64,000 nucleotides of DNA from NCBI GenBank assembly GCA_964513145.1, contig CAZELK010000001.1, positions 64,001 to 128,000 on the forward strand, read 5' to 3'. Under the pieces are notes generated by a model. The model was not told the origin of the DNA and did no database searches. It worked only from the letters and a program-made list of their open reading frames with translations. This stretch comes from Candidatus Woesearchaeota archaeon (GTDB lineage Archaea; Nanobdellota; Nanobdellia; SCGC-AAA011-G17; JACPIM01). The position numbers and the translations under genes are program-made. Shown piece by piece: positions 1,624 to 5,885 of this stretch; the first letter of the stretch is position 1, and every line of letters starts with the position of its first letter.

Positions 1624-2015
1624 TTTGCTATCCTTTCAATTGCTTTTTTTCTTTCCTTATCTTCCAGGTTTAATTCCTTAATCATAACTTTTGACGGATG
1701 TATGGGGTAGAATGTTTTGGTGCCATCTTTTTTAATTACTTCTGCACCATCAACGTAAATTCTTATTTTTTTCATGCTTACTTTATTTATTGCTCCTGAA
1801 GTCCCTTTAAATTGCCCTCTCATAATTGTTACTTTATCTCCTTTTTTAACTGGAAAATTTCTTTTTTTGTATTTTTTTATTAATTCTTCAGTTAAATGAG
1901 CTGAGAGGAATTTATGCCTAATATTTAATGGAGCATTGTGGACATATTTTCTCTGCTTTCTTGGCTGCTTGCTTGATTTCCATTTTCTTGAAAATTTATT
2001 TCTCATTTTATTCAC
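1620..2015 (-). CDS. rpl24: 50S ribosomal protein L24 (uL24)
   Basis: SKQPRKQRKY..NAPL; KGDKVTIMRG KOW motif; PIHPSKV. Confidence 0.97.
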   Translation of the reverse strand: MNKMRNKFSRKWKSSKQPRKQRKYVHNAPLNIRHKFLSAHLTEELIKKYKKRNFPVKKGDKVTIMRGQFKGTSGAINKVSMKKIRIYVDGAEVIKKDGTKTFYPIHPSKVMIKELNLEDKERKKAIERIAK

Positions 2016-2385
2016 TCAAATTCCTTTCAAGTTCTTTAAACCCTTTTTCATATTTTATCATAACATAATCCTTTAATGCTTCGCCATATCCGCCCCTTAT
2101 TAAATTGAATCCAAATACATTTAACATTACTCCATAAACAACATCTTTCTGTACTTTTGCTCCAACTCCCATTATCAAACCAGCCTGGCTTATATTTTTT
2201 GTTTCTTTAACAATTTTAACTGCCCTGTCAATAAACATACCTAATTTGCTTAATTCAAATAAAAGGCTGTTGAAACTTTCATCCCCCATTATTTGAGGCA
2301 ACTGAGCAACATCTAAATTTCTCTCAGACAAGAAAGTTTCAAGATTTTTTCTTTCTTTATCATTAGGAATATGAGTTTTTACCAT
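2008..2385 (-). CDS. Hypothetical protein (126 aa) inside the r-protein operon
   Basis: ATG at 2385 lies 1 nt after the rpl14 stop and its stop overlaps the rpl24 start; the track's longer version overlaps rpl14; no recognisable motif. Confidence 0.75.
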   Translation of the reverse strand: MVKTHIPNDKERKNLETFLSERNLDVAQLPQIMGDESFNSLLFELSKLGMFIDRAVKIVKETKNISQAGLIMGVGAKVQKDVVYGVMLNVFGFNLIRGGYGEALKDYVMIKYEKGFKELERNLSE

Positions 2386-2386
2386 T

Positions 2387-2788
2387 TTATACCACAATGC
2401 TTGCGACTTTTGCAATTGCTGGCCATCGCTCAGCAACCTCCTTAGCTATAGGTCCCTTGAAAATTGTACCTTTTGGATTACCTTTATCATCTTTTAATAT
2501 TACAACAGCGTTGTCTGCAAATTTTATTCTTGTGCCATCTTTTCTCCGATATTCTTTTTTTTGCCTTACTACAATAGCAGGAACAACCTGTTTTCTCATT
2601 TCTGTTTCACCTTTTAATACAGAAACCAAGATTTCATCCCCAACACCGCATGAAGGCTTTCTTCTTCTTACTGTTTTCGAACCTTTTATTGAGACAATCC
2701 TAACTATTTTAGCGCCTGAATTATCACAAGTCTCTACGACACTACCATGATTCAAACATTTTGTTATTCTTGCCTTAAGAGCTTTCAT
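2387..2788 (-). CDS. rpl14: 50S ribosomal protein L14 (uL14)
   Basis: CDNSGAKIV, DNAVV, PKGTIFKGPIAKEVAERWP. Confidence 0.98.
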   Translation of the reverse strand: MKALKARITKCLNHGSVVETCDNSGAKIVRIVSIKGSKTVRRRKPSCGVGDEILVSVLKGETEMRKQVVPAIVVRQKKEYRRKDGTRIKFADNAVVILKDDKGNPKGTIFKGPIAKEVAERWPAIAKVASIVV

Positions 2789-3110: not shown

Positions 3111-3364
3111 TTTTTTAACCTATCCTCGGGCCTGCCTATTAATAATTCCCCATTAGTTTGTATTTCGTTTTTTCCATTTGAAATTTTTAATGTAACTTGT
3201 TTTTTTAGTATTGTCATTATTTTGTCATTATTTTTTATCTTGATTGTATTTTTAGTTTCATCTATTATTTCGCCCTGAATCCCAATCAAGTTCTTGTTTT
3301 GTGAATCTATTACTTCCATTTTTAACCCTATTAATTCGCCACGCAAAAAATCTTTTAAAACCAT
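3107..3364 (-). CDS. rnp1: Ribonuclease P protein component 1 (Rpp29/Pop4)
   Basis: ELIGL..EV, G.IIDETKNT, L.GRPEDRLK; conserved position between SUI1 and S17. Confidence 0.94.
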   Translation of the reverse strand: MVLKDFLRGELIGLKMEVIDSQNKNLIGIQGEIIDETKNTIKIKNNDKIMTILKKQVTLKISNGKNEIQTNGELLIGRPEDRLKK

Positions 3365-3366
3365 TT

Positions 3367-3675
3367 TTATCTTGTTTCTATTGAATCTGATGAAAAACCT
3401 AATTTTGTAAGTTCTTCCTTTGTTTTTTCTGCGTGCTCACCTTGGAGCTCTATTGTATCTCCCTTGACTGTTCCTCCACATGCGAATTTTGTTTTCAACT
3501 CTTTTGCGAGCTCTTTTAAATCAATCTCTTTTTTGTTTATTCCGTAAATGACTGTGATTAGTTTACCGAACTTTCTTTTTTCAATTTTGACTTTGATCCT
3601 TTGCCCTTCTTTAGCTATTGTCTGACAAACACAAAGGTCTCTAGGAAGACCGCATTTTGAGCAGATTTCATTCAT
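3367..3675 (-). CDS. sui1: Translation initiation factor SUI1 (aIF1)
   Basis: [30 protein letters not shown]. Confidence 0.96.
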
Positions 3676-3895
3676 TCTTTTTCATACCTTTTCCTGAGTC
3701 TTTTGCTTGACTCTTTATTTTAGCTATTGTCAATATTCTTGCAATAGTTCTTCTTGTATTTTTTATTAGGGCTGGCTTTTCCAATGTGCTTCCCCTGGCT
3801 CTTTTTGCATTCAATATTATGAGTTCTTTTTTTAAATCTATTAACTTATTTTTCAAACTTTCCTCGCTTAGTTCTTTTATTTCACTTATTTTCAT
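3668..3895 (-). CDS. rpl29: 50S ribosomal protein L29 (uL29)
   Basis: [19 protein letters not shown]...[13 protein letters not shown]; ATG at 3895 preferred because the track's TTG at 3901 lies in the putative IS left end. Confidence 0.94.
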
Positions 3896-3896
3896 T

Positions 3897-3937
3897 GGCA
3901 AGGATACCCCATCAGCTTGCTGTGGGGAGGAATTGCC
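3897..3937 (+). repeat. IS left-end imperfect hairpin
   Basis: GGCAA..CCCCA-T-CAG-CTTG-CTG-TGGGG..TTGCC inverted repeat read directly from the sequence. Confidence 0.75.
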
Positions 3938-3948
3938 CCTTTGTTAAG

Positions 3949-3958
3949 TTTATAAATA
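3949..3958 (+). promoter_or_regulatory. Putative TATA box of tnpB (leaderless transcript, opposing the r-protein operon)
   Basis: TTTATAAATA ending about 20 nt before the tnpB ATG at 3979. Confidence 0.55.
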
Positions 3959-3978
3959 TTTAAATCCTGATAATTAAG

Positions 3979-5073
3979 ATGTTGATTAGGGCAACTGCAA
4001 AAATTAAGATTGAAACTAGACCTGAAATTATAGAAACTATTAGCCTCTATAGAAAAGGTCTGCAATTCTGTGTAAATTCTGCTTGGGAATTGAGGATTAA
4101 AAATAATATTAGATTGCATCCCTTTGTTTACAAAACTCTTAAAGAAAGTGGATTGCAAAGTCAACTGGCTATTGCATGTATTAAACAAGCCTGTGGGATT
4201 GTCAAAAAAGCCAAATCCAAACCGATTATTAATTTCTCTTTCATGGAATATGACTTCCCTAGGAGTGCTAGTTTCAAGAATAATATTTTGAGTCTTTCTA
4301 CAATAAAGGGCAGGATCAAGATTCCATTCCAAATCCCTGAATGCTATCAAATTTATTTTCAGGACTGGAGAGTTTGTGAAAGCATTTTGAACATTGACAA
4401 AAGGGGAAGATGTTTTTTTAATTTCAGTTTCTCCAAAGAGGTCAGCACAAAAGTCCCTAATCAACAATTCAGGGTTCTTGGTATTGATCTCGGAGTAAAT
4501 AATCTTGCTGTGACAAGTGACAACAAATTCTTCGGACAAAAGATTAAGCAACAAAGGATCAGGCATGATAAATTGATTAGTGAAATCCAAACTAAATGCA
4601 CAAAATCTGCTAAGAGAAAACTCAGAAAGATTTCTGGCAGATGGAGAAAGTTGATGGCTTGGACTAATCATAACATCAGTAAAAGTATTGTTGAACCATT
4701 GGATCAAGGAGATGTTATAGTAATGGAAGATTTGGTTAATATCAGAAAGACTGCTAAATACAATAAGTGGATTCATAAATGGGCTTTCTTCCAGTTGAGA
4801 AGCTTTATTGAATACAAAGCTTTCAGAAAAGGAATTAGGGTTGTCTATATTAATCCTGCTTATACTTCCAAAACTTGCAACAGATGTCATAATTTAGATA
4901 CCTCTAGACACAATGGTTTTTTCAAGTGCAATACTTGTAATCATTCCTTGAATTCCGACATTAACGGAGCAAGGAACATAGCTCAACTCTACACGAGTAA
5001 AATGAGCTTGGCTTTTGTAAACAAGCCAACTATAACATGTGATGATGCCAAAGCATCTACAATTTCCGTATGA
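3979..5073 (+). CDS. tnpB: RNA-guided endonuclease TnpB (364 aa)
   Basis: RuvC-I LGIDLGVNN, RuvC-II VIVMEDL, zinc finger TSKTCNRC...FKCNTC, RuvC-III NSDINGARNI; the catalytic D/E/D are all present. Confidence 0.96.
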   Translation: MLIRATAKIKIETRPEIIETISLYRKGLQFCVNSAWELRIKNNIRLHPFVYKTLKESGLQSQLAIACIKQACGIVKKAKSKPIINFSFMEYDFPRSASFKNNILSLSTIKGRIKIPFQIPECYQIYFQDWRVCESILNIDKRGRCFFNFSFSKEVSTKVPNQQFRVLGIDLGVNNLAVTSDNKFFGQKIKQQRIRHDKLISEIQTKCTKSAKRKLRKISGRWRKLMAWTNHNISKSIVEPLDQGDVIVMEDLVNIRKTAKYNKWIHKWAFFQLRSFIEYKAFRKGIRVVYINPAYTSKTCNRCHNLDTSRHNGFFKCNTCNHSLNSDINGARNIAQLYTSKMSLAFVNKPTITCDDAKASTISV

Positions 5074-5091
5074 TGAATTGAAGTTAAGCAT
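4894..5091 (-). other. Antisense ORF (65 aa), same frame as 3892-4890 and separated from it by one stop
   Basis: ATG 2 nt after the rps3 stop; the single stop is the reverse complement of the one TTA Leu codon of tnpB (4894-4896). Confidence 0.3.
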
Positions 5092-5154
5092 AGTTATAAA
5101 TGCCCCGCATCTTGATGCGATTGGTGTGGTTTACTTTCTGGTTTTACTTCTTTT
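5030..5154 (+). ncRNA. Predicted omegaRNA (reRNA) scaffold plus guide of TnpB
   Basis: TnpB omegaRNAs are known to derive from the 3' end of tnpB plus the right end; hairpin CGCAT-CTTG-ATGCG at 5106-5119; the guide would be the flank from about 5134. The 5' limit is a guess. Confidence 0.5.
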
Positions 5155-5885
5155 GTTTTTTTGGCACGAGTCTTTTTTGGCTTTTCTTCTTTTACCAATT
5201 CTTTAAGTTCTTCAACTGCCTTTGTATCCTCGATTTTTATTTCTTCTGCAGTTTTTTCAGATTCTTTTTTTAAAACAAGCTCTGCATTTTTATCTACTAT
5301 ATATACTCTATCAGGCAATGTTATATCTGGGGTCATTATACTAACTTTAATTCCGACAGTTCCGGATTTTAGGTTTGCTGTTGCTATCGCCCTTTTAATC
5401 TGATTAGCTGAAATATCCCCTGATTTTTTTAAATGGCCAGCTTTAAATCTCCAGCTTCTTGCCCTGGCACTAGGGACTTTTCCTGAAATTACTATTTCTG
5501 CTCCTGATGCGCCATGATCAAGAATGTCCTGCAATGTTTTGTATCCAATTGACTTGAATCTTTTAGAACCAAACTTTACCAATGTAGCTGATATTTTGTC
5601 AGCGACATAATAAGCGTCTAACATAGGGCTTTCTATTTCCCCAATTTCAATCTGGGGATTTTCCATTTTGAATCTTTTCTTCAATACATTTGTAAGTTTT
5701 TTTATGTTCTCTCCTTTTCTACCAACTACAAGACCAGGACGAGCTGTAAAAATTATTACTTTTTCTCCAAGGGGTGTTCTCTGTATTTCTATGTGGGAGA
5801 ATCCAGTTCCAACTAATTGAGATTTTATATGTTCTTGAACTTGAAATTCTTTTATTTTCTGGCTAACAAATTGTCTTTCTATCAT
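5094..5885 (-). CDS. rps3: 30S ribosomal protein S3 (uS3) with a K/E-rich tail whose last ~12 residues come from the IS
   Basis: IEIQRTPLG, RPGLVVGRKG KH motif, ISGKVPSARAR; tail SKPHQSHQDAGHL is encoded by the IS right end. Confidence 0.97.
   Translation of the reverse strand: MIERQFVSQKIKEFQVQEHIKSQLVGTGFSHIEIQRTPLGEKVIIFTARPGLVVGRKGENIKKLTNVLKKRFKMENPQIEIGEIESPMLDAYYVADKISATLVKFGSKRFKSIGYKTLQDILDHGASGAEIVISGKVPSARARSWRFKAGHLKKSGDISANQIKRAIATANLKSGTVGIKVSIMTPDITLPDRVYIVDKNAELVLKKESEKTAEEIKIEDTKAVEELKELVKEEKPKKTRAKKTKEVKPESKPHQSHQDAGHL

Follow-up and report, generated by a model that had tools for sequence, protein, structure and literature searches.

The window analysed here is a stretch of 64,000 nucleotides (nt) from a Candidatus Woesearchaeota archaeon (contig CAZELK010000001.1, positions 64,001 to 128,000, assembly GCA_964513145.1). 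Within a ribosomal-protein operon on its minus strand it holds an insertion sequence (IS) of the IS200/IS605 type, which carries tnpB and no tnpA and lies between rps3 and rpl29, directly at the start codon of the latter. On the strand antisense to tnpB the element is open to translation in the direction of the operon, the last antisense open reading frame (ORF) stopping on the rpl29 start codon, and this open frame, which recurs in related elements and is maintained by selection, may serve to carry ribosomes from one host gene to the next. The features of the locus are given below in window coordinates, with TAM standing for the transposon-associated motif and aa for amino acids.

3668 to 3895, minus strand: rpl29, 75 aa, intact and matching Pfam Ribosomal_L29; its ATG (3895-3893) coincides with the last three bases of the TAM.
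3891 to 3895, plus strand: TTCAT, the TAM or target pentamer, host sequence and the reverse complement of the rpl29 start ATGAA.
3896 to 5134, plus strand: the IS200/IS605-type TnpB-only element, 1239 bp (413 x 3), defined by the empty site of congeners, the right-end consensus and its single copy.
3896 to 3978, plus strand: left end, with an outer stem (3897-3901/3933-3937), GGATA, an inner hairpin (3907-3927), AGGAA and an AT-rich box.
3979 to 5073, plus strand: tnpB, 364 aa, with the RuvC triad D170, E250, D327 and a CxxC...CxxC zinc finger intact.
5010 to 5134, plus strand: 3' part of the omega-RNA scaffold, from RNAalifold and pair counts over 44 relatives, with helices 5010-5014/5023-5027, 5033-5040/5088-5096, 5047-5049/5082-5084 and 5054-5056/5073-5075 and the terminal hairpin 5107-5111/5114-5118.
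5129 to 5134, plus strand: GTTTAC, the right-end terminus and end of the scaffold.
5135 to 5150, plus strand: predicted 16-nt guide and target TTTCTGGTTTTACTTC, host DNA antisense to the last rps3 codons, placed from the right-end position and the TnpB mechanism.
5094 to 5885, minus strand: rps3 in its present form, 263 aa; its last 13 codons and stop (5094-5134) lie in the right end of the element.
4894 to 5091, minus strand: antisense ORF65, with its ATG (5091-5089) 2 nt past the rps3 stop (5096-5094) and its TAA stop at 4896-4894.
3892 to 4890, minus strand: antisense ORF332, codon-aligned to tnpB, with its ATG (4890-4888) 3 nt past the ORF65 stop.

The limits of the element could be fixed by comparison with genomes that lack it. 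In all 30 related genomes examined rpl29 directly follows rps3, and in three genomes of the same genus (G001-G003) S3 ends in ENENK-stop or ENENQ-stop within a 14-nt overlap with rpl29 (...GAAAATGAAAATAA.TGA), which places the empty site at 3895/5135: this join recreates the congener junction (...KPENENK-stop), with the same GAAA ahead of the ATG. A preliminary description of the locus, made from the DNA letters, had read the insertion as lying exactly at the rpl29 start, with TTCAT as the reverse complement of ATGAA, and had offered two joins, 3895/5134 (KPER-stop) and 3895/5135 (KPENENK-stop), to be settled against close relatives without the element; the position and the arithmetic of both joins hold, and the congeners settle the matter in favour of the second. 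The join at 3895/5134 and a possible one at 5137 (KPE-stop) were rejected, as each loses the match of GAAA to ATGAAAATAA and the ENENK tail common to the congeners. Since 3896 and 5135 are both T, the limits are formally ambiguous by 1 nt, an ambiguity removed by the right-end consensus of the family (...TTAC), related elements terminating in ...GTTTAC or ...TGTTA(C/T), so that the right end is 5134. Excision of 3896-5134 gives back the congener junction to the base and leaves no target duplication, in keeping with the mode of insertion that the preliminary description had assumed and that characterizes IS200/IS605 elements, i.e. 3' of a 4-5-nt target without duplication. The element thus sits inside the 14-nt rps3/rpl29 overlap, immediately ahead of the rpl29 ATG and with tnpB antisense to the operon, and the ancestral NENK-stop tail of S3 has given way to 13 residues from the right end.

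Both ends are of the expected kind, with subterminal hairpins, compensatory changes in relatives and no terminal inverted repeats. At the left, an outer stem (GGCAA, 3897-3901, with TTGCC, 3933-3937) encloses an inner hairpin in which 3907-3915 pairs with 3920-3927 around a CTTG loop (3916-3919); this architecture is repeated in relatives with covarying outer stems. An AT-rich, TATA-like box (3948-3965) follows about 25 nt upstream of the tnpB ATG, and one may speculate that it is a bidirectional TATA box. At the right, a hairpin with the same CTTG loop, as noticed from the start (5106-5110 with 5115-5119, within 5106-5119), precedes ...GTGGTTTAC, which ends at 5134.

Read in the direction of the operon, the locus forms a chain of rps3 stop, 2 nt, ORF65, 3 nt, ORF332, ATGA and rpl29, in which ORF332 traverses the left end and its TGA (3894-3892) overlaps the rpl29 ATG. 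Since ORF332 is codon-aligned antisense to tnpB, it stays open only if tnpB avoids the codons TTA, CTA and TCA. Indeed, tnpB contains a single such codon against 23.3 expected (P ~2e-9) in a genome where TTA makes up 55% of Leu codons and TCA 29% of Ser codons, and the same triplets occur 46 and 17 times in its other two frames. A comparable antisense run was found in only 1 of 306 long host ORFs. Neither ORF65 nor ORF332 has a Pfam match at E ≤ 0.1.

The open antisense frame is a property of the clade and not a peculiarity of this single copy. Of some 110 related loci gathered from genomes and metagenomes, with 46-66% identity at the protein level, 59 had a defined left boundary after de-duplication. 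In 52 of the 59, an open antisense frame runs for 300 codons or more and stops at a host start, the exits being ATGA in 45 loci, TAATG in four and 20-31 nt upstream of the start in four (one of the last a 315-codon run on a truncated contig); in 49 of 59 the frame ends precisely on the host start. The three avoided codons account for 0.34% of family tnpB codons versus 5.6% in flanking genes, a depletion of about 16-fold that is specific to the frame (69, 2375 and 750 occurrences in the three tnpB frames). Distant TnpB paralogues from the same archaeal order (25-35% identity) contain 17-48 such codons and have antisense runs of 34-87 codons.

The left end, being non-coding, is an independent test of the frame. 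Across the family it is 73 to 137 nt long, with 20 different lengths, and nevertheless the length is 2 mod 3 in 52 of 59 loci, and the exit frame through it is free of stops in 48 of 59, versus 2 of 59 and 8 of 59 for the other frames. The antisense frame is therefore under selection to remain open. Its layout was also seen directly by ORF listing in two relatives (L100 and L064). In the CxxCH motif of the zinc finger, a conserved His codon, CAT (H304, 4888-4890), gives in reverse complement the main antisense ATG. A stop often lies 1-4 codons ahead of this ATG, and a conserved protein motif thus has a stop-restart point built into it.

Across the family the element is found docked at host starts. 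Of 53 loci that could be evaluated, 34 have a minus-strand ORF of 60 aa or more whose start is the CAT of the TAM; for other TTCAT sites in the same flanks the figure is 21%. The flanking starts include true N-termini (signal peptides, a GT2 domain beginning at residue 6, rps14). Excision in silico leaves an in-frame stop 0-15 codons upstream of the ATG in most loci. Of 36 loci, 28 have a co-directional upstream gene whose end is no more than 60 nt away, and in 14 of the 36 (~39%) that gene stops exactly at +4, in an ATGA overlap. A census of TTCAT sites in the source genome (84% intragenic, 9% between genes, 6% at start codons) gives an expectation of about 5.5% ATGA overlaps among non-intragenic sites. 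The right-end terminus TTAC/TTAT reads in reverse complement as GTAA/ATAA and supplies the TAA stop of the upstream gene in 14 loci and in L064, a second ribosomal-operon case, between rpl5 and rps14; insertion at an ATGA junction therefore alters only the third base of the last codon and replaces TGA by TAA. The rps3 frame differs from these loci because its overlap with rpl29 is 14 nt. This docking rule, with ATGAA starts on one side and a TAA supplied by the right end on the other, helps in annotation where genes are at present extended into transposon ends, as with S3 and its 13 foreign C-terminal residues. The idea that the TAM biases insertions to gene starts, which the preliminary description had derived from one copy, is thereby supported across the family, whether the bias arises by targeting or by survival of harmless insertions.

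Two variants of the pattern were encountered. In a subclade (L141-L148, 49-50% identity) TCAC stands in place of TCAT ahead of the left end (e.g. ...TTCAC/GGCTCC...), and these elements may dock at GTG starts overlapping a TGA stop, TCAC being the reverse complement of GTGA. One family member with typical DPANN-type ends (L083, JAYEFL010000044.1) lies in a contig binned as 'Bacteroidota bacterium', reflecting either mis-binning or a rare bacterial host.

For the TAM, comparison of left ends confirmed what TTCAT at 3891-3895 had suggested: TCAT occurs within 30 nt upstream in 60 of 69 related left ends versus 13 of 60 control windows, and T is favoured at position -5 in 45 of 59 loci. Relatives thus provide the left flank that further copies had been expected to provide, the element being present once in its own genome. 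Of the guide proposed earlier, an optional C followed by the right flank, the position to the right of the element stands and the leading C falls, since with an empty site at 3895/5135 the guide starts at 5135 (TTTCTGGTTTTACTTC). That TnpB would use this guide is predicted from the right-end position and the known mechanism of such nucleases. No second copy of TTCAT plus guide was found elsewhere in the genome. At the occupied site, the right-end TTTAC plus guide (5129-5150) is only two bases away from TTCAT plus guide, which makes it a near-target, shielded by the TAM mismatch.

The 3' part of the element encodes a structured RNA. When the terminal 160 nt of 44 related elements are aligned, a consensus of 24 pairs in five helices extends over the tnpB 3' end and the right end, with compensatory changes in 22 of the 24 pairs; 93% of alignment cells are paired, versus 61% after shuffling and 29-37% when partners are slid, and 0 of 500 shuffles were as good. 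This is the arrangement of OMEGA (obligate mobile element-guided activity) systems, in which a scaffold overlapping the tnpB 3' end and right end is followed directly by a flank-derived guide. No Rfam family matched 3600-5400 at E ≤ 1.

The 364-aa protein matches Pfam OrfB_IS605 (E 6e-9) and Cas12f1-like_TNB (E 1e-21), and its nearest PDB relatives by sequence are Cas12f proteins and one TnpB (E 5e-23 to 1e-18). The residues D170, E250 and D327, aligned to a solved Cas12f at its GIDLG, MEDL and SD.N motifs, and the cysteines C300, C303, C317 and C320 do not vary across 31 homologues. The complete set of RuvC residues reported at first is hence conserved, together with the C-terminal zinc finger that goes with the D-E-D triad in TnpB/OrfB proteins of IS200/IS605 elements, and the protein is predicted to be an active nuclease. 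At E ≤ 1e-30 the clade numbers 864 proteins, and homologues bear the labels Woesearchaeota, Nanoarchaeota, Pacearchaeota and Aenigmatarchaeota. Its members are candidates for compact (~360 aa) nucleases for which the TAM, (T)TCAT, is defined and covariation supports a guide scaffold. Three more TnpB genes in the source genome (L002-L004, on contigs C7 and C12) share 28-32% identity with this protein; codon usage is ordinary in the two examined, L002 (29 TTA/CTA/TCA codons) and L003 (19), and neither has a long antisense frame.

As to mobility, the element is single-copy in its genome, where a search for further ends returned only AT-rich chance matches to the left or right end and hence no multi-copy confirmation of these. 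It contains no tnpA, as had been observed, with only 83 nt between TAM and tnpB ATG, and a Y1 transposase (PF01797) was not found in the 98.8%-complete genome; PF01797 is present in 11 of 40 relatives. Mobilization by a Y1 (HUH) TnpA in cis or trans, usual for IS200/IS605 elements, is therefore not seen here, and the transposase of the element, if any, acts in trans or has been lost. A missing cis tnpA is the defining trait of the TnpB-only group. As the element is single-copy, is missing from three congeners and has its closest homologues (54-74% identity) in other families or unbinned contigs, it was acquired after the species split. The closest homologue (P0002, 74% identity), known from gene layout alone, has minus-strand genes abutting both ends and fits the docking pattern. 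On all these points the observation that started this work is confirmed, and its interpretation in terms of an IS200/IS605 element with TAM and guide is supported.

The host is a DPANN archaeon with a genome of about 1 Mb (assembly G000: 978 kb, 18 contigs, 98.8% complete, 29% GC), and its DNA is present in groundwater metagenomes; no RNA run was listed among those that contain the stretch. Up to the element the operon reads L3, L4, L23, L2, S19, L22 and S3; past it follow L29, SUI1, the RNase P protein Rpp29, S17, L14, L24, S4e, L5, S14 and S8, all on the minus strand. Between rpl14 (2387-2788) and rpl24 (1620-2015) lies a 142-aa ORF without Pfam match (2008-2436, minus strand), which overlaps the rpl14 3' end by 50 nt. 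In archaeal operons rpl14 and rpl24 are normally neighbours, and because of this the ORF may be another insertion or a lineage-specific gene.

Insertion sequences are a textbook cause of polar mutations, and an element in the middle of an essential ribosomal operon of a ~1-Mb genome therefore needs explaining. We consider it probable that the locus holds an intact, non-autonomous IS1341-like element, docked between co-directional genes, whose antisense frame would act as a ribosome bridge. The element integrated without duplication 3' of TTCAT on the top strand and so kept the ATG of the downstream rpl29. By the established mechanism, TnpB would be led by an omega RNA carrying the 16 nt from 5135 to the allele without the element (TTCAT plus TTTCTGG...) and would cut it there. 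In the clade, the TTA(C/T) of the right end, read backwards, gives the upstream gene a TAA where an ATGA overlap had a TGA. Host genes joined by ATGA rely on termination-reinitiation, which works only over overlaps or very short gaps, and for this reason an insertion between them would break their coupling and, in the absence of a bridge, leave 1.2 kb of untranslated operon mRNA. The antisense frame would instead keep ribosomes on the operon mRNA across the element and pass them to the downstream gene by termination-reinitiation at the ATGA, such that the insertion would be neither polar nor uncoupling. Entry into the frame could be through small intermediate ORFs, alternative starts or independent initiation.

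Several points weigh against this interpretation. Entry in relatives is irregular: the main antisense ATG lies 9-250 nt from the upstream stop, and the last ~60 codons, in the omega-RNA region, often contain 1-4 stops, so that a strict relay starting in the upstream gene cannot hold for every locus. The rule used to place left boundaries in relatives requires TCAT, and the loci are related elements, so that their counts are not fully independent. A Y1 TnpA that could bring the elements to their sites was not found in this genome and was found in only 11 of 40 relatives. The empty-site allele (joint 3895>5135) was not seen among the contigs of four runs, a search that is uninformative on absence as contigs drop rare variants.

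The strongest rival holds that this is an ordinary IS insertion, that docking reflects survivorship in gene-dense genomes and that the antisense frame has no role in host translation. With 84% of TTCAT sites intragenic, survivors must sit at gene edges, and the irregular entry into the antisense frame fits such an account as well. Survivorship does not, however, explain the frame-specific depletion of TTA, CTA and TCA in tnpB, nor a left end that is 2 mod 3 in length with a stop-free exit frame, nor the excess of exact ATGA overlaps over expectation among non-intragenic sites, and the open frame is missing from distant TnpB paralogues of the same genomes. We therefore regard this explanation as unlikely.

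The antisense frame might alternatively be a true overlapping gene, encoding a protein of ~350-400 aa that serves the element, with the exit on ATGA incidental. The length of the frame, its conservation across elements at 46-66% TnpB identity and its main start at a conserved ATG speak for a gene. Its sequence is, however, fully set by the reverse complements of tnpB codons, ORF332 and ORF65 match no Pfam family, and the frame crosses the left-end hairpin and promoter region to end precisely on a host start in most loci. The frequent occurrence of a stop with immediate restart would be tolerable for a ribosome bridge but not for one protein, and we hold an overlapping gene to be improbable.

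Still less credence is due to domestication of TnpB as a TldR-like, RNA-guided regulator of the ribosomal operon, detached from any mobile element. Such a role would suit a single-copy gene without transposase in an essential operon, with a guide antisense to the rps3 3' end. TldR-like proteins have lost the RuvC catalytic residues and the transposon ends; here the triad is intact and invariant, both ends are in place, three congeners do without the element and relatives occupy many unrelated sites.

Finally, the preliminary description had allowed for an assembly chimera, an IS contig joined to a ribosomal operon, and Logan contigs of run X4 do break within the region, with adapter-like ends at 3814 and 4909, but there is next to no chance of this, as contigs from three samples in two studies span the junctions with 0 differences (one 2.7-kb contig of run X2 over 3200-5783, contigs of X4 at both junctions and a contig of the second study, X5/X6, at the right one) and the rps3 and rpl29 halves match the congener junction to the base. 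The Logan contig 3814-4909 of X4 carries a Nextera adapter-like sequence (CTGTCTCTTATACACAT) at both ends, an assembly artefact of that run and not genomic. Depth in X4 also differs between the element and its flanks, in contig-level figures that do not lend themselves to interpretation.

Returning to an antisense frame that would bridge the element for ribosomes, we extend the proposal more tentatively, at somewhat less than even odds, to a TnpB clade that is DPANN-wide and has evolved 'transparency' to operons, through a start-codon TAM, a stop-codon right end and an open antisense strand that would carry ribosomes over ~1.2 kb. If true, this would be a transposon-encoded anti-polarity device that keeps translation coupled even within ribosomal-protein operons (rps3/rpl29 here and rpl5/rps14 in L064), possibly preserving transcription-translation coupling too. 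It would provide a new route for a mobile element to reduce its cost to the host, explain how TnpB-only elements persist in streamlined genomes with almost no intergenic space, and represent an unusually clear triple constraint on one DNA, which would have to encode TnpB and the omega RNA and also keep an antisense frame open.

Several features of the element have counterparts in known systems. In ISDra2, TnpB is a RuvC nuclease guided by RNA, and the scaffold of its guide RNA overlaps both the 3' end of tnpB and the right end. The archaeal element shares this overlap, here with a scaffold supported by covariation; that scaffold matches no Rfam family, and ISDra2 TnpB is absent from the PDB sequence matches of its protein at E ≤ 1e-3. 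Akin to the IS1341-type or 'IS605B' elements (PMC4810608), it has no transposase, a lone tnpB between subterminal hairpins, no inverted repeats and no target duplication, and it inserts beside ATGA (TCAT on the element top strand), N/ATGA being the published target of IS605B/ISC elements (Kapitonov et al., 2016, PMC4810608). Those families come from cyanobacteria and proteobacteria, whereas the clade described here occurs in DPANN archaea, and a text search of the IS605B paper (PMC4810608) returned no mention of start codons, a stop supplied by the right end or an antisense open frame. Our literature search, incomplete in coverage, likewise turned up no description of either an open frame antisense to tnpB or the docking of TnpB elements at start codons.

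In the TnpB and IscB elements ISGst2 and ISGst5, the target of the transposon, 5' of the left end, is also the TAM, the guide derives from the DNA 3' of the right end, and the nuclease cuts the empty donor site, so that the element is retained (Meers et al., 2023, PMC10055086). The archaeal element would follow the same logic of target, 3' flank and nuclease, and TTCAT is also the TAM of the ISGst5 IscB of Geobacillus stearothermophilus (Meers et al., 2023, PMC10055086). ISGst2 and ISGst5 share their genome with TnpA partners and have been studied by experiment; the archaeal element lacks TnpA, is known from sequence and lies inside an essential operon, antisense to it. In archaea, coupling by termination-reinitiation requires overlaps or very short gaps (Huber et al., 2019, PMC6728339; PMC10666635). 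The joints of 2 nt, 3 nt and ATGA (-4 nt) found here are within the distances of such ATGA/TGATG pairs; unlike in these, two of the three frames are on the antisense strand of a mobile element, and their coupling is predicted from distances. By itself, the element is an ordinary addition to its family, with a published TAM; what lifts the finding above this is the design shared across the clade, with a TAM that is a start codon, a right end that provides a stop codon and an antisense frame that selection keeps open over its full length and that exits on the host ATGA.

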